Shown piece after piece: positions 8,247-32,002 of a stretch of 64,000 nt of DNA. The notes under the pieces were generated by a model. The model worked only from the letters and a program-made list of their open reading frames with translations, made no database searches and was not told where the DNA came from. The DNA is from an uncultured Alphaproteobacteria bacterium. GTDB lineage: Bacteria > Pseudomonadota > Alphaproteobacteria > RF32 > CAG-239. The stretch spans positions 57,485-121,484 of the forward strand of contig CALXUE010000002.1 of the NCBI GenBank assembly GCA_944391615.1, in the 5' to 3' direction. Positions within the stretch are counted from its first letter, which is position 1. Every line of letters begins with the position of its first letter. Made by a program: the position numbers and the translations under genes.

Positions 8247-9182
8247 ATGCAGTCAAAATACATAAAACAAGCCTTTGTTCTTTTTATATTTTCACTTTTG
8301 GCGGCTATCGGAACGTATGTGATAAACGAGCAAAAACAGCCGGAAAACATTCAAGGCGAACGCGTGTTTAAAACAAATACACAAAACGCAGCCACCATAG
8401 AACTGCGCGCTCCAAACTTTAAAATAACCCTAGATAAAATAGACAATCTCTGGAGCATACGCGAAGCCGATTCTTATTACGCGGATTATGAAATAGTCAA
8501 AAGTTTAGAAGACTTTATCAATAAAGCAAAAATATTAAAAAAAGCCCCAATAAACAAAGCTGAAGAAAAGCATCGCTACCAAAACGGCCTTGAGATTAAC
8601 ATCTACAATGCCAATCAAGAAAAACAAGACAGCATCATCTTGAGTCTGCAAGAAAAAATAGCCAATAACATATCCGCCAAAATTCAGGGAAAAACCGGAA
8701 ACTTTATCATAGAAATGCCAAGAGTTTTACCTTTGAATATAAAGAATTGGCTTCAGCAACCCCTTCTGAATATTAAAACAGAAGATATAGAAAAGATATC
8801 AATTAATAACCTAAGCGCTACCCGCCGACAGGGAGAAGACTTTTTCAGAACCGATAATGGTAAATTATATAGCATTCGCAACATTGAAAAAATTTTAAAT
8901 TATTTACCATTTGAAGATGTCAAATCGGCCCAAAATTTTGATGAAACGCAATATACAGCATTGAAAACTTACAAAATCACCACGAAATCAGGCCTGATTT
9001 ATGATTTGACACTATACGGCAAGAATTCCGAAATTTGGTTAAAAGAAAAAATTAGCACGACAACTCTTCCAACCACGCAAACCAGTGATTATATAAAGAG
9101 GAACGAATTTTTATATAACTATTGGTACTTCAAACTACCGCCCGAATTAGGCAGCAGCTTGATACGCGAGAGGCTGGAATAA
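8247..9182 (+). CDS. DUF4340-like periplasmic protein
   Basis: N-terminal TM, fourth gene of a gldAFG-like operon, W..(Y)YAD and W.FKLP motifs. Confidence 0.55.
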   Translation: MQSKYIKQAFVLFIFSLLAAIGTYVINEQKQPENIQGERVFKTNTQNAATIELRAPNFKITLDKIDNLWSIREADSYYADYEIVKSLEDFINKAKILKKAPINKAEEKHRYQNGLEINIYNANQEKQDSIILSLQEKIANNISAKIQGKTGNFIIEMPRVLPLNIKNWLQQPLLNIKTEDIEKISINNLSATRRQGEDFFRTDNGKLYSIRNIEKILNYLPFEDVKSAQNFDETQYTALKTYKITTKSGLIYDLTLYGKNSEIWLKEKISTTTLPTTQTSDYIKRNEFLYNYWYFKLPPELGSSLIRERLE

Positions 9183-13872: not shown

Positions 13873-15486
13873 TTTAAGATATTGCGTAATACTGTCAAAT
13901 GTCAAAATCTGAGGCAGAATATAACTTTTTTGATTAATATAAAAGACATAAAGAGGCACACTGTTGCGCCCAAATTGCGCCAAAGATTCCGTAATTTGAG
14001 GTGAACTATTCGTCCAATCCGCGCGAAAGAGAGCAACATTATTTTGCTTTGCCCAATCTAAAAATTGTGCTCTATCCAACACGGCTTTTTCATTCATCAA
14101 GCAGGTCAAACACCATTTAGCGGAATAATCCACAAACACTTTTTGGTTGCTTTGAACTAATTGGTTAATTTTAGCGGCATCAAAATCTTGCCATTCGGAA
14201 TTAGAGTGATTTTTAGTATTTGTAAATATTTGAGCATAGAGCAACCAAGATAGCCATATACAAGTCAAAATCAACGGAATAGCAAGAATATGTTTCAAAC
14301 GCACCATCCACATTCCTGGCTTAGGCAGCAAAAAGGCCACAACTTGAGGAAAAAATCCCGCGAGTAAAAAAGGCAAAGCGTAGCCAAACCCCAAAGCAAG
14401 AAATATCGGCACATAGACCCAAGACGGTTGTGTTAAAACAAAACCAATAGCTGTTCCCATAAAAGGAGCCGAACAAGAACTTGCTATAACAACAGAAAAC
14501 ACACCGGTTAAAAAAGCACCGCCTTTGCCTTCACTCATAAGCCACTTGCTGTTTAAAGAAAAACTAAGTTCAAACACATCTAAGAACATCAAGGTAACAA
14601 TAACAAAAATAACTAACAGCACAGCTACAAAATAGGGTGATTGTAGTTGAAATCCCCAGCCGATACTTTCACCGCTTTGCCTCAAAATCATCATAAGCAA
14701 AGCCAATCCCAAAAAAGAAACAATCACCCCCAAGGCATAAAATACAGCATCGCTTCTAGCTTTTTTAATATCTGTAATATTTTTAACGAGATTAAGCACC
14801 TTAACCGAGAGCACCGGCAAAACACAAGGCATTAAATTTAAGATAATTCCGCCGGCAAAAGCCAAAATCAAAGCCCAAACCACCCCATCAGCCATAAGCG
14901 GTATATCATTATTTTCAGACAGATTTTGAGATTTGTTTTGAGCAAGACGCCTATGCTCCAACAAATGCCTCCATTCGGCGGAAGGCAAAACATTGTGCTG
15001 AACAATAGGTAAAGAAAAAACAAATTGCTTACTTTGCAACAAACATTCATCGCGACAAGCCTGCCATGACACATCTAACTTAAATTCAAGTTTTTTGCTT
15101 GATTTATTTAGGTTGATAGGTTCGAAAGAAGCCAAATAATAAGCATTTTTCTCAAAACCAAATTGCGTGCCCAAATCTGTCACAAAAGTTTGTTCATCAC
15201 CAAAACTTTGGGAAATTAGCTTATACCCGACATTGTCCACCCATTCAACAGTAGTTGGCAAACCGATATCTCCGGGGTTAGGTGCCAGAATATGCCACCC
15301 GTCATCAATATCAAACACCACCATCATCTCAAATTTTTGTTGAGGATTAATGGCTTGAGAACTTGCATAAACCCGCACACTAACAGGAGAAGCATTATAT
15401 TCGGCCACGACAGCCTGTGCCTGCTTAAACACACTTAAGCAAAACACCATCAGATAACAAGCTAATTTTCCCAATTTAAGCAACAT
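13870..15486 (-). CDS. dsbD: DsbD-family thiol:disulfide interchange protein
   Basis: GWHI..NPGDIG, LNLMPCVLPV, SCSAP, WCLTC thioredoxin motif. Confidence 0.9.
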   Translation of the reverse strand: MLLKLGKLACYLMVFCLSVFKQAQAVVAEYNASPVSVRVYASSQAINPQQKFEMMVVFDIDDGWHILAPNPGDIGLPTTVEWVDNVGYKLISQSFGDEQTFVTDLGTQFGFEKNAYYLASFEPINLNKSSKKLEFKLDVSWQACRDECLLQSKQFVFSLPIVQHNVLPSAEWRHLLEHRRLAQNKSQNLSENNDIPLMADGVVWALILAFAGGIILNLMPCVLPVLSVKVLNLVKNITDIKKARSDAVFYALGVIVSFLGLALLMMILRQSGESIGWGFQLQSPYFVAVLLVIFVIVTLMFLDVFELSFSLNSKWLMSEGKGGAFLTGVFSVVIASSCSAPFMGTAIGFVLTQPSWVYVPIFLALGFGYALPFLLAGFFPQVVAFLLPKPGMWMVRLKHILAIPLILTCIWLSWLLYAQIFTNTKNHSNSEWQDFDAAKINQLVQSNQKVFVDYSAKWCLTCLMNEKAVLDRAQFLDWAKQNNVALFRADWTNSSPQITESLAQFGRNSVPLYVFYINQKSYILPQILTFDSITQYLK

Positions 15487-24757: not shown

Positions 24758-25411
24758 GCCTAAAATCAATAACAAATCAGCCTCAAAGAAAAGTAAAAGC
24801 ATTTAGATAAAACAAACACAAAACATAGACAAAACACACAGTTTCAATAAACAAACCATAGACAAAAACAACACATAAATAAAATTATTCAGTAAAATCA
24901 ATAGAATATAGATATTGAAATAAAAACAAAGAGCAGGGTGAAGATAAAAAAACTTAAAAATGATTAAAATAAAATTATTCAATGAACATAACATAAGACA
25001 AAGCCAAGATAATGAGCAATTAGCAAATCAGCCTGTTTACTGAGGAATATTTATTTCTAGACTTCATAAGTTCTATGGATACTTAAAACATACATATTTT
25101 ATATAAGGAGAATATCAGTGCCGCATACATAAAATGCCAATATTTTATAGAAGAACTCTATTATATATGCAGGAATCTTTGTAACAATTATTTTCTTATA
25201 AATCATATATTCTATAACACTTATATTCTTATAACTCAAATTTTCAATATTGCATATTTTTAATAACACACATTATCTTATGACTAGTAATTTCATAACA
25301 ACACCTATATTCAAATCCATACAAAACACATACGTTTATCATGAAGCATACATACGGCTACTTTGGAACATAAAAATGCCTATATTTTTCCCCTCTTCTC
25401 CATAACACGTT

Positions 25412-25439
25412 TTGTCGCATAATATATATTCAGAGGCTA
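25412..25439 (+). other. attL: dif-like site (XerC arm, spacer, degenerate XerD arm)
   Basis: TTGTCGCATAA-TATATA-TTCAGAGGCTA. Confidence 0.88.
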
Positions 25440-25750
25440 TATCATCAACAGCCAGAAAACAAGACAAAGCAATACGACTACTTGACAAAATAATAAATAA
25501 ATATTTCAAAATATTTGAATTAATACAAAACGAAAAAACAAAATCAAGACAAGCACTAATACACAACAATAAGAACCTAAAAAGTCTATTAATATACAGA
25601 CTTGTAACAAAATACTACTTACGCGAAAGATACGGAACGATTAATCCGACAGAACTTTCAAACCTCAAAGAAAAAACACACAAAAAAATAAAAAATATAA
25701 TGTCCGAAATCGGGCAAAACATAAAAAAAATAAACGAAATCAAAATCTAA
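25412..25750 (+). CDS. Phage hypothetical basic protein whose 5' end overlaps att (ATG restored on excision)
   Basis: 112-aa ORF MSHNIYSEAI... starting at the TTG of attL; the equivalent position in attR is ATG with an upstream RBS. Confidence 0.6.
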   Translation: MSHNIYSEAISSTARKQDKAIRLLDKIINKYFKIFELIQNEKTKSRQALIHNNKNLKSLLIYRLVTKYYLRERYGTINPTELSNLKEKTHKKIKNIMSEIGQNIKKINEIKI

Positions 25751-25771
25751 TTAATTAAAGGAGTAAAAAAA

Positions 25772-26068
25772 ATGGAAAATTCAGCTAACAAAACAGAAAA
25801 ATCAAAAGTTGTAAATAAAATGAGATTTTACGCGATATTTGACAAGAAAAGCGAAAAATTTTTCACACCAAACGTAAAACCAAACAATGCATGCGCTTTG
25901 CGTGACTTAGAAAGTTTCTGCAAAAGCAAAAACAGCATAATCGGACAATTTCCGAAAGATTTTTCAATGTATTATCTCGGATATATTGACGAAGACAATG
26001 GGGAAATGTTCGGAGAAAAACAATTAATAGGAGAGGCACAAGACTATGTCGAAATCGAAAACAACTAA
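25772..26068 (+). CDS. Microvirus nonstructural protein VP5
   Basis: FYAIFDKK...FPKDFSMYYLGYIDEDNG; AGGAG RBS. Confidence 0.8.
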   Translation: MENSANKTEKSKVVNKMRFYAIFDKKSEKFFTPNVKPNNACALRDLESFCKSKNSIIGQFPKDFSMYYLGYIDEDNGEMFGEKQLIGEAQDYVEIENN

Positions 26069-26147
26069 TTTACTCAATGAAATAGTAAAATATTTAGGTT
26101 GGGTAATCGTCGCAGTGCAAGAACTTGTAAAAGTAATTGCAGAATAA
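26046..26147 (+). CDS. Small amphipathic phage peptide (33 aa)
   Basis: Manual translation MSKSKTTNLLNEIVKYLGWVIVAVQELVKVIAE; GGAGAGG RBS; ends at terminator. Confidence 0.5.
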   Translation: MSKSKTTNLLNEIVKYLGWVIVAVQELVKVIAE

Positions 26148-26181
26148 AAAAAAAGGGCGTGATTTTTCACGCCTTAATTTT
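26146..26181. terminator. Phage hairpin terminator
   Basis: A run-gggcgtga-ttt-tcacgcctt-aatttt. Confidence 0.5.
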
Positions 26182-26210
26182 AATAACAAGAAAGGAAAGG
26201 AAAAAATGTC

Positions 26211-26294
26211 ATGCAAAACTTTAGTAGAACAGCCATTAAAACAAAAAAAATCAATGTCAGACCGAAAGTCTCTTTCGGCGGGAAAAGATTTTAA
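26211..26294 (+). CDS. Microvirus DNA-binding protein VP8 (27 aa)
   Basis: Manual translation MQNFSRTAIKTKKINVRPKVSFGGKRF; resembles the gokushovirus VP8 F.RTA.KTK.IN..P...GG.R. pattern; below the ORF-track cutoff. Confidence 0.75.
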   Translation: MQNFSRTAIKTKKINVRPKVSFGGKRF

Positions 26295-26351
26295 GATATT
26301 AAAAAAAATCAAAATACCTACTTTATACATCAATTTCGAAAGGTTAGGATA

Positions 26352-26816
26352 ATGAAAATTGAAAATACAACTTATGATAGAACTAAAAAAACGCCGTTTA
26401 ACGGTTGGAATAAAATTAACAAATGTTGCATCACTTATGATGACAATTCTAAAATTCGTAGAAATGGCAAAGAAATAAGTCTTCAAGAATTTATAAATGC
26501 AAATAACCAAGACTGCACAATTTACCAAGTATATGACAAATACATGGGAAATATGAAATTGACACAACAAGCACTTTGCAACATTTCGCATAAAGTAGCA
26601 GACGAATTGTCAGGAATGGACTTGGCAACAGCATTGAATACGATGAACAAAGCTGAACAAGCTTGGAATAATTTACCACAAGCAATTAAACAAGAATTTG
26701 GAAACAGTGTCCAAGCGTTCCAAAAAAACGGTTTACAATGGGCAAAAAATAAAATTGCAGAATTTAACAAACCGAAACAAAAAGTTACTGAAGAAAAAAA
26801 AGAAAATAAGGAGTAA
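26352..26816 (+). CDS. Microvirus internal scaffolding protein VP3
   Basis: DLATALN..AEQAWNNLPQAIKQEFGNS VP3-like motif; immediately upstream of VP1. Confidence 0.7.
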   Translation: MKIENTTYDRTKKTPFNGWNKINKCCITYDDNSKIRRNGKEISLQEFINANNQDCTIYQVYDKYMGNMKLTQQALCNISHKVADELSGMDLATALNTMNKAEQAWNNLPQAIKQEFGNSVQAFQKNGLQWAKNKIAEFNKPKQKVTEEKKENKE

Positions 26817-26822
26817 TACACA

Positions 26823-28511
26823 ATGGCAAGAAACGAAGAAATCTCAGTTTATGGAATACCAGAAGTATACAAAAACCGCTATAATCACCAATATACATGT
26901 CGGAGAAAAACAACCTTCAACATAGGCGATATCGTACCGATTTATACCTCTATTTTGGTACAACCGGGAGATACAATCTCACTCAATGCACGTTCATTCT
27001 TTAGATTGACGACCTCACTATTTCCGCCTATGGACAATTTAACCGCGGACATATTCTGTTTTGCAGAAGATTGGCAAAATGTTTGGGAACACACAAAGGA
27101 ATTCTGGGGAGAAGATGAAGCAACACCATTTGATGAATTACCAGAATACACCGTGCCACAAATAGAAATAACGCCAACAGATGAAATTTTGCATAATGAT
27201 ATTTTGCATCACATATCATTACCACAAATGAAAGCAGACGAAGCCGCAATTCCTGAAATAACTCGCGTAAATAACATATCCGTAGAAGCTTTATCATATA
27301 GAACGTATATAGATATTTATAATAGATTTTTCCGAGACCAAAACTATATAACAAAATATGACCTTGAAACAGGAGATACACAAACAAAACCCGAAAATGG
27401 AACATGGGCAGGCAAAAAAAGAGCAAGAACTCTTTTAAAAGCGGCCAGATTGCACGACTATTTCTCAGGAACACCAGAAGCTCAAAAAGGTGACCCAGAA
27501 ACATTGCCTCTTGGAACAAGCGCACCAATCATAGGAACAGGGACAATCATAGGAAACGGAAAACCAGTAACTTGGACAAATGCTGACGGGACAAGTTCGA
27601 CTAATATTGCAACCGCGGCCTCAGGTGACGGGGAATTAAGACTAGCACCGTCATCCGGCTTGATTTCAACTATGTACGCTCCAACAGACGCAGCAGACGC
27701 ATACTTAAAACTTGATATGACGAACACTCAAGTTGACCTTGCGAATGCAGTCGCGAGTACCTTAAACGCTCTAAGGCTTGTAACAGCCAACCAGCACATT
27801 AAAGAAGAGTTAATGTGGTACGGCTCACGATTTGAAGAAATCATCTTTAGCCAATGGGGCGTTAGCATGGACGCGACCTCATTCCGTATTCCTGAATATC
27901 TTGGCGGAAAACGTATTTCTTTAAATATGGACACTGTTTTACAGACATCAAGCACAGACGCCGAAAGCCCACAAGGTAACGCGGCAGGATATTCCGTGAC
28001 TTTTGATGAAGACCATCTATTCACAAAATCATTTAAAACATGGCAAATTTTGATGATTTTAGTAGTGGTAAGACAAGACCACACATACTCATATGGCGTA
28101 GCAAATCAACACCTTAAAAAACGCAAATTTGACTTTTATTGGGATAAATTTGACGGATTAGGCGCACAGCCAAGAAGTAAAGCCGAACTTGCATTAACTG
28201 GAACAGATTCCGATAATGACACTTGGAACTTTGCGCCAGCTTGGAGAGAATACATCTCAGAAGTTGACCGCGCAACGGGTTTAATGGTGCCAGGGGTAGA
28301 AAACAGCCTTGCAAACTACACCTATAACGATGAATACACCAGTGTACCAAACTCAGGCGAAGAATGGATTAATGAAATTCCGAACTATGTCGACCGTACC
28401 TTGGTTGTACCATCATCAACAACAGACCAAATTATGGCTGATTTTGTTTTTGAAATCAACAAAACATCTATTATCAAAAATTACAAATTGCCAGGATTGG
28501 ACAAGCTCTAA
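26823..28511 (+). CDS. Microvirus major capsid protein VP1
   Basis: KTTFNIG...VQPGDT, PPMDNL, YNRFFRDQN, HDYF, RIPEYLGG, TKSF, AWREY; 562 aa. Confidence 0.93.
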   Translation: MARNEEISVYGIPEVYKNRYNHQYTCRRKTTFNIGDIVPIYTSILVQPGDTISLNARSFFRLTTSLFPPMDNLTADIFCFAEDWQNVWEHTKEFWGEDEATPFDELPEYTVPQIEITPTDEILHNDILHHISLPQMKADEAAIPEITRVNNISVEALSYRTYIDIYNRFFRDQNYITKYDLETGDTQTKPENGTWAGKKRARTLLKAARLHDYFSGTPEAQKGDPETLPLGTSAPIIGTGTIIGNGKPVTWTNADGTSSTNIATAASGDGELRLAPSSGLISTMYAPTDAADAYLKLDMTNTQVDLANAVASTLNALRLVTANQHIKEELMWYGSRFEEIIFSQWGVSMDATSFRIPEYLGGKRISLNMDTVLQTSSTDAESPQGNAAGYSVTFDEDHLFTKSFKTWQILMILVVVRQDHTYSYGVANQHLKKRKFDFYWDKFDGLGAQPRSKAELALTGTDSDNDTWNFAPAWREYISEVDRATGLMVPGVENSLANYTYNDEYTSVPNSGEEWINEIPNYVDRTLVVPSSTTDQIMADFVFEINKTSIIKNYKLPGLDKL

Positions 28512-28783
28512 TGGCTGAAAGTTTGGATTTATACATAGCCGAAATTGATGAGTTGGCGGGAAAAGTCCAAGCAGACTTGGTGCGTGCAGTAGACAACTAT
28601 TGCACGCTTTACCAAGCAATGCAAGACATTAAACCAACTGTCAAAAAAGAAAAACCGAACTATGACAAAGAAATCATAAAAAAGCTACAAAATGCAAGCT
28701 ATTCGGACAATTTGTTTAATAAAAAAATTCTTAAAAAGAAAGGGTTGAAAAAATGGGATTATTTAGCTCTATTGGCGGAATAA
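28511..28783 (+). CDS. Phage hypothetical protein
   Basis: 90-aa ORF coupled to the VP1 stop (TAATG). Confidence 0.55.
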   Translation: MAESLDLYIAEIDELAGKVQADLVRAVDNYCTLYQAMQDIKPTVKKEKPNYDKEIIKKLQNASYSDNLFNKKILKKKGLKKWDYLALLAE

Positions 28784-29418
28784 TTAACGATTTGACAGGC
28801 GTATCATCAAGTGCAAATCAAGGTTTTAAATATTCACAAGCTTTATCAAACCTCAATTTCGAACAACAAAAATATTTTGCACAAAATGCACACCAAATGG
28901 AAATGGCAGACCTCCAAAAAGCAGGACTCAACCCTGCATTAACCGCAACCGGTGGTTCAGGTGCTTCCGCAAGCGGGGGAGGAGGCATAGCCGGAAATGG
29001 TGGATCGCCAACGGCGAACATATTCGGTATTATGTCAGAATTAGCAGGAGTATTTAACGCAACTAAACAAACCAATGCAAACACCGAGCTACAAGGCGCA
29101 CAAGCAATTAAAACGCTTGCAGAAACAAAAAATCTACCTCAAGAGCTTAAAAATGACACTATGCGAGCACTTGCCGACAAAATGAACGCCGAAACAGGCG
29201 CAACAAATGCAAAGACAAACCAATGGAACGCATGGAACAACGAATATAACAATATGACTAATAGATTGCAATATCTACTTGATGAAAAACGCGCAAATGC
29301 TGGAAAACTCGGCGAATGGGTAGGAGCTGAAAACGCATCTAAAGTAACACGCGGAAAATATTCATTACCGAGAATGTTTTTCGACCTTCTATTCGATGGG
29401 CAAATTCCAAAATTTTAA
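28753..29418 (+). CDS. Microvirus DNA pilot protein VP2
   Basis: Gly-rich N-terminus, AHQMEMADLQKAGLNPAL signature, coiled-coil repeats. Confidence 0.88.
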   Translation: MGLFSSIGGIINDLTGVSSSANQGFKYSQALSNLNFEQQKYFAQNAHQMEMADLQKAGLNPALTATGGSGASASGGGGIAGNGGSPTANIFGIMSELAGVFNATKQTNANTELQGAQAIKTLAETKNLPQELKNDTMRALADKMNAETGATNAKTNQWNAWNNEYNNMTNRLQYLLDEKRANAGKLGEWVGAENASKVTRGKYSLPRMFFDLLFDGQIPKF

Positions 29419-29544
29419 AACACAAACAAAAATTAATTGAATTAATAAAATAAAAAGAAAAATGCAAAAAGGAATAAAACAGCGAGCCAAAAAATTGCCA
29501 ATAGTCCAATTAAAACCGCGTGAAATATCTTTTTTGTTAAACAT
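29389..29544 (-). CDS. Antisense single-TM phage peptide (51 aa; second copy 30109-30264)
   Basis: Manual translation MFNKKDISRGFNWTIGNFLARCFIPFCIFLFILLIQLIFVCVLKFWNLPIE; GAGG 7 nt upstream. Confidence 0.45.
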   Translation of the reverse strand: MFNKKDISRGFNWTIGNFLARCFIPFCIFLFILLIQLIFVCVLKFWNLPIE

Positions 29545-29576
29545 GTCAAAACCTCAGTCAATAGGAGTTAAAAGTA

Positions 29577-29732
29577 ATGTACGGAGCAAATAATAACACA
29601 AATAATTTATACGGTCAAGACAATGGATTTGATAGAATTAAAAGCGGAATTAATAACGCAAAATCTATTAAATCGGGCTATGACAAAATCAATGACATAG
29701 CTAAATCAATATTAGCAATGATTGCAGGTTAA
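29577..29732 (+). CDS. Small phage protein (51 aa; second copy 30297-30452)
   Basis: AGGAG RBS; MYGANNNTNNLYGQDNGFDRIKSGINNAKSIKSGYDKINDIAKSILAMIAG. Confidence 0.55.
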   Translation: MYGANNNTNNLYGQDNGFDRIKSGINNAKSIKSGYDKINDIAKSILAMIAG

Positions 29733-29880
29733 AAAAATGACCCAAAAGGACAGGGTATAAGCTTATACACCGATATTTTTAATTAATCGGTGTCACTGGG
29801 CGGTATAGTATCAAGGCGCACAAGCAATTAAAACGCTTGCAGAAACAAAAAATCTACCTCAAGAGCTTAAAAATGACACT

Positions 29881-30138
29881 ATGCGAGCACTTGCCGACAA
29901 AATGAACGCCGAAACAGGCGCAACAAATGCAAAGACAAACCAATGGAACGCATGGAACAACGAATATAACAATATGACTAATAGATTGCAATATCTACTT
30001 GATGAAAAACGCGCAAATGCTGGAAAACTCGGCGAATGGGTAGGAGCTGAAAACGCATCTAAAGTAACACGCGGAAAATATTCATTACCGAGAATGTTTT
30101 TCGACCTTCTATTCGATGGGCAAATTCCAAAATTTTAA
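29881..30138 (+). pseudogene. Duplicated C-terminal fragment of VP2
   Basis: Identical to the last 85 aa of VP2; created by the duplication. Confidence 0.75.
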
Positions 30139-30514
30139 AACACAAACAAAAATTAATTGAATTAATAAAATAAAAAGAAAAATGCAAAAAGGAATAAAAC
30201 AGCGAGCCAAAAAATTGCCAATAGTCCAATTAAAACCGCGTGAAATATCTTTTTTGTTAAACATGTCAAAACCTCAGTCAATAGGAGTTAAAAGTAATGT
30301 ACGGAGCAAATAATAACACAAATAATTTATACGGTCAAGACAATGGATTTGATAGAATTAAAAGCGGAATTAATAACGCAAAATCTATTAAATCGGGCTA
30401 TGACAAAATCAATGACATAGCTAAATCAATATTAGCAATGATTGCAGGTTAAAAAAATGACCCAAAAGGACAGGGTATAAGCTTATACACCGATATTTTT
30501 AATTAATCGGTGTC

Positions 30515-30552
30515 ACTGGGCGGTATAGTATCAAGTAGACCAACCGCCCAGT
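30515..30552 (-). other. Putative rolling-circle origin hairpin with CTACTTG/ATA nick motif in the loop
   Basis: Stem actgggcggt/accgcccagt, 18-nt loop, minus strand reads CTACTTGATA (30538-30529); just upstream of rep. Confidence 0.7.
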
Positions 30553-30596
30553 TTTTTTTCCTAAAAAAAAATCCAAAAAAAGAGCAGGGGGCGCAA

Positions 30597-31724
30597 ATGG
30601 TTTGTTTATGTCCTAAAGTCGCATACCAAAGGAAATTTTATCCAATAGACGGCAATATATCCGAAAGAAACTTAAAAAGATTAAATAAAATATCATTTCA
30701 ATATCACAGAGGTTGGAAACAAATATTAATTCCATGCGGAGAATGTCCAGCGTGCAAACTTGCAAAAGCTAACGAATGGGCTGTCAGAATTAACAACGAA
30801 GCAGAAACATGGAAAAATAAAGGAATTTTTGTCACCTTAACTTATAATACACCAAATTTGCCACTTACAAAAGACGGATTAATGACCCTACAAAAAAGGG
30901 ACATGCAACTATTCAAGAAAAGATTAAGAAAATACATATCGAAACATAACGAGGGAATAACCGAATGGATTAATCCCAAAAACGGAAAAATTGAAAAACC
31001 GATTCGAACTTTCGAATGTGGAGAATATGGGCCGACAAAAGGAAGACCACATTATCACCAAATCATATTTAACTGGATACCAAACGACCTAGTCGAGAAA
31101 GAAATATCAAAAGACGGATATCCACTTTATAAATCAAAAACACTACAAAAAATATGGGGCAAAGGCTTTGTTTTGATAGGAATGATAAGCTTTGAAAGTG
31201 CCAGCTATGTTGCAAGATATACCATGAAAAAAGCAGGACTTGCAAAAACAAAACGTGTCTATTATGACGCTTGCGAATACAATGAAGAAACCAAAAATTT
31301 TGAAATGAAAACAAAATACAAAACAGAAAAGGGGGAGATAGAACCAGAATTTATAACGATGTCAACATCGCCAGGGATTGGATATTGCTATTTTATAAAA
31401 AATCAAGAAAGTATTATAAAAAACAATGGGTTATTGATAAAAGTTAAAGGAAAAGTAAAATTAAAATCAATACCACGATATTATAGAAAAATCATGGAAC
31501 GCCAAAACTGGAAAAAATACGAAAAATGGAAATACGAAAACCAAAAACAAGCAGACGAAAAACAAAAAAAACTTGTCAACAGCTACAAACTGCCAGAAGA
31601 AATGATTTTCGAATTAAAAGTGCAATTTGTAAACAATATTTTTCTTGACACAATTAGAAATAAATTTAACTTATTGAAAAGAAACAATATTTTATATGAC
31701 GAAGAAACAAAAGAAGATGAATAA
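30597..31724 (+). CDS. Microvirus replication initiator VP4 (HUH Rep)
   Basis: PCGECPAC, FVTLTY (motif I), CGEYG..RPHYH (motif II), YVARYTMKK (motif III). Confidence 0.95.
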   Translation: MVCLCPKVAYQRKFYPIDGNISERNLKRLNKISFQYHRGWKQILIPCGECPACKLAKANEWAVRINNEAETWKNKGIFVTLTYNTPNLPLTKDGLMTLQKRDMQLFKKRLRKYISKHNEGITEWINPKNGKIEKPIRTFECGEYGPTKGRPHYHQIIFNWIPNDLVEKEISKDGYPLYKSKTLQKIWGKGFVLIGMISFESASYVARYTMKKAGLAKTKRVYYDACEYNEETKNFEMKTKYKTEKGEIEPEFITMSTSPGIGYCYFIKNQESIIKNNGLLIKVKGKVKLKSIPRYYRKIMERQNWKKYEKWKYENQKQADEKQKKLVNSYKLPEEMIFELKVQFVNNIFLDTIRNKFNLLKRNNILYDEETKEDE

Positions 31725-31728
31725 TTGA

Positions 31729-31920
31729 TTAAGTTATACACAATCGCTACAGCGCATTGTGAGGTGCGCGCTCATGTGCATAACTTAAAAAAAAAATAAT
31801 TTTATATATTGACAACAAAAAAAATTTGTGATTCCGTATAATCACGGACAAGGTGAATTTGCTCTTTTTCACCTTGTCTATCATAAAGAGTTAACAAAAA
31901 GAGCAAAGAAAGGGCTAAAA
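31729..31920 (+). promoter_or_regulatory. Structured phage intergenic region and leader ending in an RBS before the attR ATG
   Basis: Several inverted repeats, TTGACA 31809 and TATAAT 31837 (22-bp spacing, non-ideal), AAAGGG before ATG 31921. Confidence 0.5.
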
Positions 31921-31948
31921 ATGTCGCATAATATATATTATGTTAAAT
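31921..31948 (+). other. dif: dif site (attR), canonical XerC/XerD target
   Basis: ATGTCGCATAA-TATATA-TTATGTTAAAT; XerD arm identical to E. coli dif; KOPS converge here. Confidence 0.93.
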
Positions 31949-32002
31949 ATAACTGTTTTTAAGACACTAAAATAAGATAAAAAGAATATGTGTACAACAA
32001 AA

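Follow-up and report, generated by a model that had tools for sequence, protein, structure and literature searches.

A gokushovirus-like prophage of the family Microviridae was analysed in a stretch of 64,000 nucleotides, hereafter the window, taken from contig CALXUE010000002.1 (positions 57,485 to 121,484, forward strand; assembly GCA_944391615.1) of an uncultured alphaproteobacterium of the lineage RF32; CAG-239. All coordinates are those of the window unless stated otherwise. The 6.5-kb insert is such a prophage, and its attachment (att) site is, by the evidence of its sequence, the chromosomal dimer-resolution site dif of the host. The explanation that best accounts for the observations, and that we consider very probable, is that the prophage was integrated into dif by Xer recombination, that a 112-codon open reading frame (ORF112) starts within the XerC-side arm of the phage site, and that integration exchanges the 5' signals of this frame. 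ORF112 would have an ATG start codon with a Shine-Dalgarno (SD) sequence in the circular phage genome and a TTG without one in the prophage, while encoding an identical protein in both. We rate this swap of start signals as a side-effect or a minor tuning device and not as the basis of lysogeny, and the element is a lineage-specific quirk of an already known integration route.

The Attachment Sites and the Host dif Site

An exact 18-bp core (TGTCGCATAATATATATT) is present at 25413-25430 and at 31922-31939. When up to three mismatches were allowed in the search, the sole extra match was the inverted half of the right attachment site itself, and in shuffled controls the mean number of matches was 0.15, with three matches reached in 1 of 100 shuffles. 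The core corresponds to the XerC-side arm together with the 6-bp central region of dif. The right site, attR (31921..31948, + strand), is a complete dif consisting of ATGTCGCATAA, the centre TATATA and TTATGTTAAAT; it forms a 28-bp imperfect palindrome in non-coding DNA, with arms palindromic at 8 of 11 positions and a G+C content of 18%. The left site, attL (25412..25439, + strand), is a hybrid made up of the host XerC-side arm TTGTCGCATAA, the same centre and a degenerate right arm of phage origin, TTCAGAGGCTA. The left arms of the two sites are identical at 10/11 positions, the only difference being the outermost base (T in attL, A in attR), the centres at 6/6 and the right arms at 3/11. 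The phage site attP would read ATGTCGCATAA-TATATA-TTCAGAGGCTA, in which the XerC side and the centre are copied faithfully and the right arm is degenerate. The original prediction, which was made from the sequence before the present analysis, had located the attachment site at the correct coordinates but had missed both its identity as dif and the XerC/XerD route.

The inner arm motifs of attR, CGCATAA and TTATG, are also found in alphaproteobacterial dif sites, being carried by the Agrobacterium and Bartonella entries in the available part of the published list (PMC2731167, Table 1). The 27-mer of dif is unique in the 1.57-Mb assembly, where the next best matches have six mismatches, and 12 of 15 same-genus genomes, including all 11 of high quality, contain a single copy of the dif motif, with a count of 0 for the reversed-pattern control. 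No match to the major capsid protein VP1 was found in the 14 other same-genus genomes, and their dif sites are therefore empty. All 11 empty sites compared read tTTGTCGCATAATATAT.., with unrelated immediate flanks. At five of these 11 loci a gene for an outer-membrane protein, as on the left flank of the prophage, and an ABC ATPase gene, as on the right flank, are situated no more than 3 kb from the site, with nothing in between; one further empty locus combines the 115-aa left-flank gene with the ABC ATPase gene.

Genes to the left of dif lie mostly on the + strand and those to the right almost all on the - strand, so that the two sides converge on the site. The GC skew of the contig switches from positive to negative and is strongly negative directly after the prophage. 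Between the skew maximum and dif (window 1-25000, contig 55-83 kb) the skew is weak or slightly negative although the genes are mostly on the + strand; such a weak-skew stretch beside the terminus could reflect a past rearrangement or acquired DNA. Two tandem 33-bp units that are 82% alike (25182-25247) are found in a 740-bp non-coding stretch of host DNA to the left of attL.

Recombinases and the Route of Integration

A search of the whole genome with PF00589 returned only two tyrosine recombinase genes, both on other contigs. One was best classified as XerD (TIGR02225, 324 bits; NF001399, 336 bits, above the cut-off of 279) and the other as XerC (TIGR02224, 320.9 bits). Among the seven prophage ORFs there was no integrase or recombinase family match in Pfam or PHROGs. 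A phage-encoded integrase and a tRNA-type attachment site were both considered and rejected, since no integrase was found and the site is dif. Because the site is dif, the host has an XerC/XerD pair and the prophage has no recombinase of its own, the element would qualify as an integrative mobile element exploiting Xer (IMEX); its two junctions, one regenerated dif and one hybrid site sharing the centre, are of the corresponding type.

Under this scheme the host XerC and XerD would recombine attP with the host dif (TTGTCGCATAA-TATATA-TTATGTTAAAT), and the reaction would regenerate a full dif at attR and leave the hybrid site at attL. With a complete dif restored at attR, chromosome dimers should still be resolvable.

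ORF112 and Its Start Signals

ORF112 (25412..25750, + strand) begins with the first base of attL, from which the sequence reads TTG TCG CAT AAT ATA TAT TCA GAG and continues as an open frame of 112 codons. It is preceded by pyrimidine-rich host DNA (...cccctcttctccataacacgtt) with an in-frame TAA at 25403. At attR the upstream sequence ...gaaagggctaaaa is followed from position 31921 by ATG TCG CAT AAT ATA TAT TAT GTT, where the XerC-side arm has the ATG as its outermost triplet, and this ATG opens only a 13-codon remnant frame (31921..31962, + strand; MSHNIYYVKYNCF*). As judged from the two site sequences, a crossover anywhere in the core keeps the reading frame, because both copies share the same codon phase. 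The original prediction had described a ribosome-binding motif and an ATG yielding just a 13-aa peptide at attR, a TTG without such a motif in front of a 112-codon frame at attL, and the in-frame joining of the two by crossover within the core, and the sequence agrees with it on each of these features. Its geometry for the excised form was borne out in that circularisation would place the attR leader and its ATG in front of ORF112, but not in the promoter ascribed to this leader, of which no canonical example is present.

Since attP abuts ORF112, a crossover would swap the first base of its start codon and its whole 5' region and leave the protein sequence unchanged. In the circle the ATG would stand behind an SD-like AAAGGG located 6 nt upstream, and in the prophage the TTG stands behind pyrimidine-rich host DNA. 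The attR leader (AAAGAAAGGGCTAAAAATG) closely resembles the ribosome-binding region of the phage gene VP2 (AAAGAAAGGGTTGAAAAAATG), and an SD-like 4-mer precedes 24 of 36 naively called host gene starts; none precedes the TTG of attL. The only in-frame start codons of ORF112 are codon 1 and codon 97. With the att codon as its sole usable start, integration exchanges ATG plus SD for TTG without SD, and we infer a difference in translation between the two states, such that translation of ORF112 would be efficient only on circular or replicative DNA and weak in the integrated state.

ORF112 probably represents a true gene. Over the 360 nt that separate attL from VP5, 53% of the bases are A, and an open frame of 112 codons was obtained in a fraction of 0.0005 of 20,000 shuffles of the same composition. 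Five homologues with 77-98% identity were found in a collection of 5.8 billion proteins, with changes scattered along their length and an N-terminal S-[HN]-N common to all. Four of them start with M-S-[HN]-N and the fifth (P0004) has L-S-H-N at this position, preceded by an N-terminal extension (MPIFFPSSPQHV) whose first nine residues, MPIFFPSSP, are the translated host flank of attL; the P0004 copy is therefore integrated at the same site. The product is a basic helical protein (pI 10.1; 24 K+R versus 10 D+E), for which AlphaFold2 predicted three helices (pLDDT 70).

Similarity searches with ORF112 gave no further relatives. A tblastn search against 50,697 phage records returned no match at E<=1, and searches of IMG/VR, metagenome contigs of JGI and genome contigs of GTDB with the ORF112 alignment gave pattern matches of which none was confirmed by tblastn. 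The only Pfam match at E<=1 was FAP206, with 16 bits against a cut-off of 33, PHROGs gave no match, a Foldseek search of the predicted structure against the PDB yielded 0 matches at E<=0.001, and the best score in the ESM Atlas (0.81) was under the useful level. The family, fold and feature searches revealed no signature of a regulator, of lysis, of recombination or of lysogeny control. Complex prediction of ORF112 with the host XerC-like and XerD-like proteins, run without controls, gave a score of 0.00, which speaks neither for nor against binding.

Conservation among Related Phages

Closest among the 50,697 phage genomes were bajarodmic virus 505 and bajarodmic virus 741. Both are complete circular genomes (5.78-5.82 kb) recovered from rodent faeces; they share the gene order of the prophage, and their VP1 and VP4 proteins are 49-54% identical to its own. 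As in these free relatives, attP is situated in the intergenic DNA separating the replication initiator gene (Rep, VP4) from VP5, in the non-coding stretch after VP4; the corresponding motif reads ...gatATGTCGCATAATATATAATgtgg in virus 505 and ...aatTTGTCGCATAATGTATAATgcg in virus 741. By the criterion used, an attP-type motif was missing in 9 of 12 free genomes examined. Of 201 genomes from the host's family, six (the present one included) have a prophage with VP1. The arrangement of the two sites seen here recurs in L018, a prophage of a metagenome-assembled genome (MAG) labelled uncultured Azospirillaceae, whose attL has a degenerate right arm and whose attR is a full dif. The opposite design was observed in locus L011 (sites at 8620-8648 and 14284-14311 of that locus), where the two sites share the centre and the XerD-side (right) arm and differ in the XerC-side arm, and where a 43-aa hydrophobic ORF lies between VP4 and the attachment site. 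Two further microvirus prophage-like loci in Clostridia/Clostridiales MAGs (L022 and L023) carry VP1, VP2 and VP4, and in L022 also VP5, with VP1 33-35% identical to that of the present prophage.

Outside the ORF112 lineage the overlap of attachment site and start codon is not preserved. The frame opened by the xTG is closed after 5, 5, 8 and 8 codons in the four relatives that share this type of attachment site (L001, which is bajarodmic virus 505; L002; L036, an IMG/VR contig; and L018, respectively), and tblastn found ORF112 in none of the 11 related loci tested. The check suggested with the original prediction, that related microviruses keep ATG-TCG-CAT-AAT in frame with a conserved ORF, thus fails in the relatives covered here. 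Between attP and VP5, L001, L002 and L018 carry a conserved ORF of 70-74 aa with its own ATG 40-65 nt downstream of the attachment site as well as an ORF of 57-88 aa. Since relatives hold other small ORFs at this position, the slot beside attP is an exchangeable accessory slot, and ORF112 appears to be a lineage-specific accessory gene that fills it right up to the recombination site in its own lineage alone.

The Leader Region between Rep and the Attachment Site

The leader (31725..31920, + strand) comprises three hairpins followed by a variable spacer with the SD-like AAAGGG (31909-31914). All three hairpins are conserved in the five relatives aligned, namely window positions 31725-31900, L001 (4023-4260), L002, L018 and L013. 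The alignment contains a long hairpin after the Rep stop codon, a run of A, a hairpin formed by GTGATT..AATCAC, and a third hairpin whose pairing is kept through compensatory changes (GGACAAGGTGA...TCACCTTGTCT here, GGCGGGGGTG...CGCTCCCGCT in others). The spacer before attP measures 0 to ~45 nt among the relatives, and both AAAGGG and the A of the ATG fall in this variable part. A complementary-strand origin, a Rep origin or a promoter or other regulatory element are guesses for the role of the hairpins.

A consensus scan detected no + strand promoter in the leader at 31726-31920. A TTGACA (31809-31814) and a TATAAT (31837-31842) are present 22 nt apart, and one weak promoter-like site (9/12) ends at 31725. 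Another weak promoter-like site lies at attL (25402-25430), and transcripts from it would begin downstream of the TTG. As the number of promoter-like sites (24) was at the level of chance (26.7±5.1 in shuffles), the promoter and terminator scans were rejected as evidence for or against a leader promoter. In bajarodmic virus 505 (L001, 4254-4282) the only sigma-70-like match of the region spans attP (TTAAGA, 17 nt, TATAAT); going by this consensus match alone, the dif centre would serve as the -10 element and integration would replace the -35 element.

Competing Readings

Several points weigh against the explanation preferred here. The Xer dependence of integration is deduced from sequence features in the present case. 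The phage right arm matches the XerD arm of the host at just 3/11 positions; in gokushoviruses of Escherichia coli both arms of the phage motif are required for integration, according to the available text (PMC7062461), and the order of strand exchange and its reversibility may therefore differ here. The recombinase scores fall slightly below the equivalog cut-offs of NCBIfam (320.9 versus 335.15 for XerC and 324 versus 329.6 for XerD), and the cumulative GC-skew maximum does not coincide with the site, falling ~34 kb to its left (~28 kb if the prophage is not counted). In the circle, moreover, the frame of ORF112 is also open upstream to a GTG at 31828, so that the ATG is not the sole conceivable start.

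The original prediction went further and proposed a repressor-free off switch, in which integration deprives ORF112 of its start signals, separates the structural genes from a leader promoter and so keeps the prophage silent. The swap of start codon and SD is real, in the circle every phage gene would follow the leader on the same strand, the leader is conserved and structured, and no repressor-like protein was found among the seven prophage ORFs. State-dependent promoter switching across an attachment site is, in addition, documented for the integrative and conjugative elements (ICEs) ICEKp1, ICEclc and ICEEc1 in the accessible part of PMC13023037, and the match spanning attP in virus 505 would suit such a switch. 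We nevertheless regard this proposal as quite unlikely. Such a device cannot be general for the phage group, given that none of the 11 related loci tested has ORF112 and that no frame is opened by the xTG at their attachment sites. The leader has no canonical promoter and promoter-like sites are no commoner than in shuffles, a terminator-like hairpin separates VP5 from VP3, and VP5, VP3, VP1, VP2 and VP4 (but not orf90, which starts at the VP1 stop codon) are each preceded by a purine-rich, SD-like region of their own. The host genes upstream are oriented towards the prophage, so that read-through is possible, ORF112 bears no regulator, lysis or recombination signature, and lysogeny of the E. 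coli gokushoviruses is described, in the text available, as passive and leaky without such a switch (PMC7062461). A role of the swap in silencing the structural genes or in maintaining lysogeny is unsupported so far. A narrower proposal, in our view likewise improbable, treats ORF112 as a circle-specific factor that is toggled by Xer recombination and acts on the balance of lysis and lysogeny or of integration and excision; ORF112 could, for instance, help Xer to act on an attP that lacks an XerD arm and then shut itself off once integrated. If true, it would constitute a topological, repressor-free switch built into a dif mimic.

The overlap could also be plain genome compaction, with ORF112 adequately expressed in both states, perhaps as a prophage 'moron' with a function such as superinfection exclusion. 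This is a reading that we find unlikely but would still take seriously. All 11 same-genus sites have an in-frame TTG at the corresponding position, contributed by the host dif, and the reading frame therefore stays intact on integration; the occupation of the attP-VP5 slot by differing small ORFs is as expected of an accessory slot, and attL has the weak promoter-like site. Yet the TTG has no SD-like motif in front of it, as against the 24 of 36 host starts with one, the promoter-like site would start transcripts downstream of the TTG, and the near-match between the SD-like motif of the circle leader and that of VP2 suggests selection for initiation at the ATG. That ORF112 is a chance open frame in an A-rich spacer, with a meaningless start-codon overlap, is very unlikely in our judgement, even though it lacks Pfam, PHROG, PDB and Atlas relatives, its low-complexity sequence abounds in K, N and I, its structure model is only moderately confident (pLDDT 70), and all homologues are so close (at least 77% identity) that conservation could be merely phylogenetic. 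A frame of such length is rare in same-composition shuffles, and the five variants retain it despite amino-acid differences of 2-23%, with a single 4-residue insertion near the N-terminus. A related contig from sequencing run X11 (run contigs were aligned for 4 of 22 listed runs, namely X1, X5, X9 and X11) differs at 21 of 353 bases across the ORF and has no gap.

Gene Content and Layout of the Prophage

The insert measures 6509 bp from core to core and 5789 bp after subtraction of a 720-bp duplication. Its seven ORFs, all on the + strand, are ORF112, VP5, VP3, VP1, orf90, VP2 and VP4. VP5, VP3, VP1 and VP2 had already been named in the original prediction, whereas its 'VP8' could not be verified; the gene set also includes ORF112, orf90 and VP4. 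The assignment to the Microviridae is based on an F-type capsid protein, a replication initiator of the HUH type, a pilot protein, an internal scaffold, VP5, the location of all genes on one strand and a genome size within ~4.5-6.5 kb.

ORF112 is followed by VP5 (25772..26068, + strand; Phage_ORF5, PF20577; phrog_1670, DNA binding protein). A G+C-rich hairpin between VP5 and VP3 (26154..26175) is terminator-like on both strands and could separate ORF112 and VP5 from the structural genes. These are VP3, the internal scaffold protein (26352..26816, + strand; Chlamy_scaf, PF09675), VP1, the major capsid protein (26823..28511, + strand; Phage_F, PF02305, E 4e-86), and VP2, the DNA pilot protein (28753..29418, + strand; phrog_8693). 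The orf90 between VP1 and VP2 (28511..28783, + strand) has no family match, and a small ORF is found at the same position in relatives. VP4, the replication initiator (30597..31724, + strand; phrog_942, PF23343), has a frame that is open from a GTG at 30510; alignments with relatives start at residue 29-30, which corresponds to the ATG at 30597.

An exact tandem duplication with a period of 720 bp (29092..30535, + strand; copies 29092-29815 and 29812-30535; 724 matching bases) covers the 3' part of VP2 and the spacer between VP2 and VP4, and leaves one intact VP2 and one intact VP4. It could be either a recent genuine duplication or an assembly artefact. The integrated relative in run X1 is without it, its contig omitting 814 bases and having 96 other letters instead. 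To the left of attL, in the same relative, 68 other letters replace nine bases between 25364 and 25374.

Occurrence and Significance

Contigs related to the region (88-99% alike where aligned) were present in chicken-gut and manure metagenomes of eight studies (shares 0.17-0.40). The run X1 contigs span attL and attR in the integrated form. Among the seven joints listed there was neither an attR-attL circle junction nor an empty site, which does not imply their absence as contigs drop rare forms. Related prophages were found in MAGs labelled uncultured Azospirillaceae, Azospirillum sp. and Acetobacter sp. and in two Clostridia MAGs. The present host encodes outer-membrane-type proteins and belongs to a poorly known, apparently uncultured group from chicken-gut metagenomes.

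The prophage would represent a clear case of a microvirus lysogenising via host XerC/XerD outside the Enterobacteria and Bacteroidetes, for which the host dif is defined, sister genomes offer empty sites and free-phage relatives are known. The two designs of attachment site within the phage family, copying either the XerC arm or the XerD arm, could inform the evolution of dif mimics in small phages. The start-codon overlap provides a simple, testable example of site-specific recombination rewiring translation signals, and if ORF112 were to affect lysogeny it would bear on how microvirus prophages without a repressor stay quiet. The literature searched, a limited collection, contained no description of a microvirus attachment site inside a start codon acting as a switch.

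Comparison with Known Systems

Filamentous vibriophages that are IMEXs hijack XerC/XerD at dif by means of an attP that mimics part of dif. CTXphi, VGJphi and TLCphi are named as such in the available parts of PMC3091885 and PMC7062461; they are Inoviridae, whereas the present prophage belongs to the Microviridae.

The closest counterpart is the Escherichia enterogokushovirus EC6098 (Kirchberger and Ochman, 2020; PMC7062461), which likewise has no integrase and is flanked by one bacterial-type and one phage-type dif. According to the text available for that study, Xer-dependent integration of the E. coli gokushoviruses was demonstrated experimentally with xerC and xerD mutants and dif-deleted phages, their repressor-less lysogeny is a passive, reversible Xer integration with persisting circles, and gokushovirus dif motifs are sometimes situated at the 5' or 3' end of a gene, with alternative start codons noted. 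Unlike in the EC6098 group, the host here is a Gram-negative bacterium with a small genome and related prophages occur in the MAGs labelled uncultured Azospirillaceae, Azospirillum and Acetobacter; the phage genes are followed downstream by the complete dif, the right arm of the phage site is almost unrecognisable, and an accessory ORF starts in the XerC arm. The genome is also larger (5.8 kb, versus 4.3-4.7 kb for the integrated prophages given in that text). The Bacteroidetes proviruses BMV1-7 (Krupovic and Forterre, 2011; PMC3091885) resemble the present element in being Microviridae without an integrase that are bounded by dif-like direct repeats, with Xer use deduced from sequence, as far as the accessible text goes, but they belong to another capsid lineage and reside in another host phylum. 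The BMV1 site is between mutS and a glycoside hydrolase gene, where, in the same text, no test by GC skew or terminus position was possible, whereas the site occupied here is a conserved single-copy dif.

Parallels to the altered gene start exist outside the Xer-dependent elements. In mycobacteriophage BPs (PMC4557955) attP also lies inside a phage gene and integration changes the yield of that gene. In the part of that work available, however, BPs has its own integrase, integration removes the 3' terminus of its repressor gene, the product becomes stable and the function has been demonstrated; in the present prophage the exchange is confined to the first base and the 5' signals, and the protein is unchanged. 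The elements ICEKp1, ICEclc and ICEEc1 (PMC13023037) share with the prophage that the circular and the integrated form place different upstream signals before the gene adjacent to the attachment site. In the passages available on these ICEs it is the integrase gene that is affected, through a switch that acts on transcription and has been measured, whereas here the switch would be at least translational, is putative and concerns ORF112. By analogy with these systems, a state-dependent switch is plausible in kind for the prophage.

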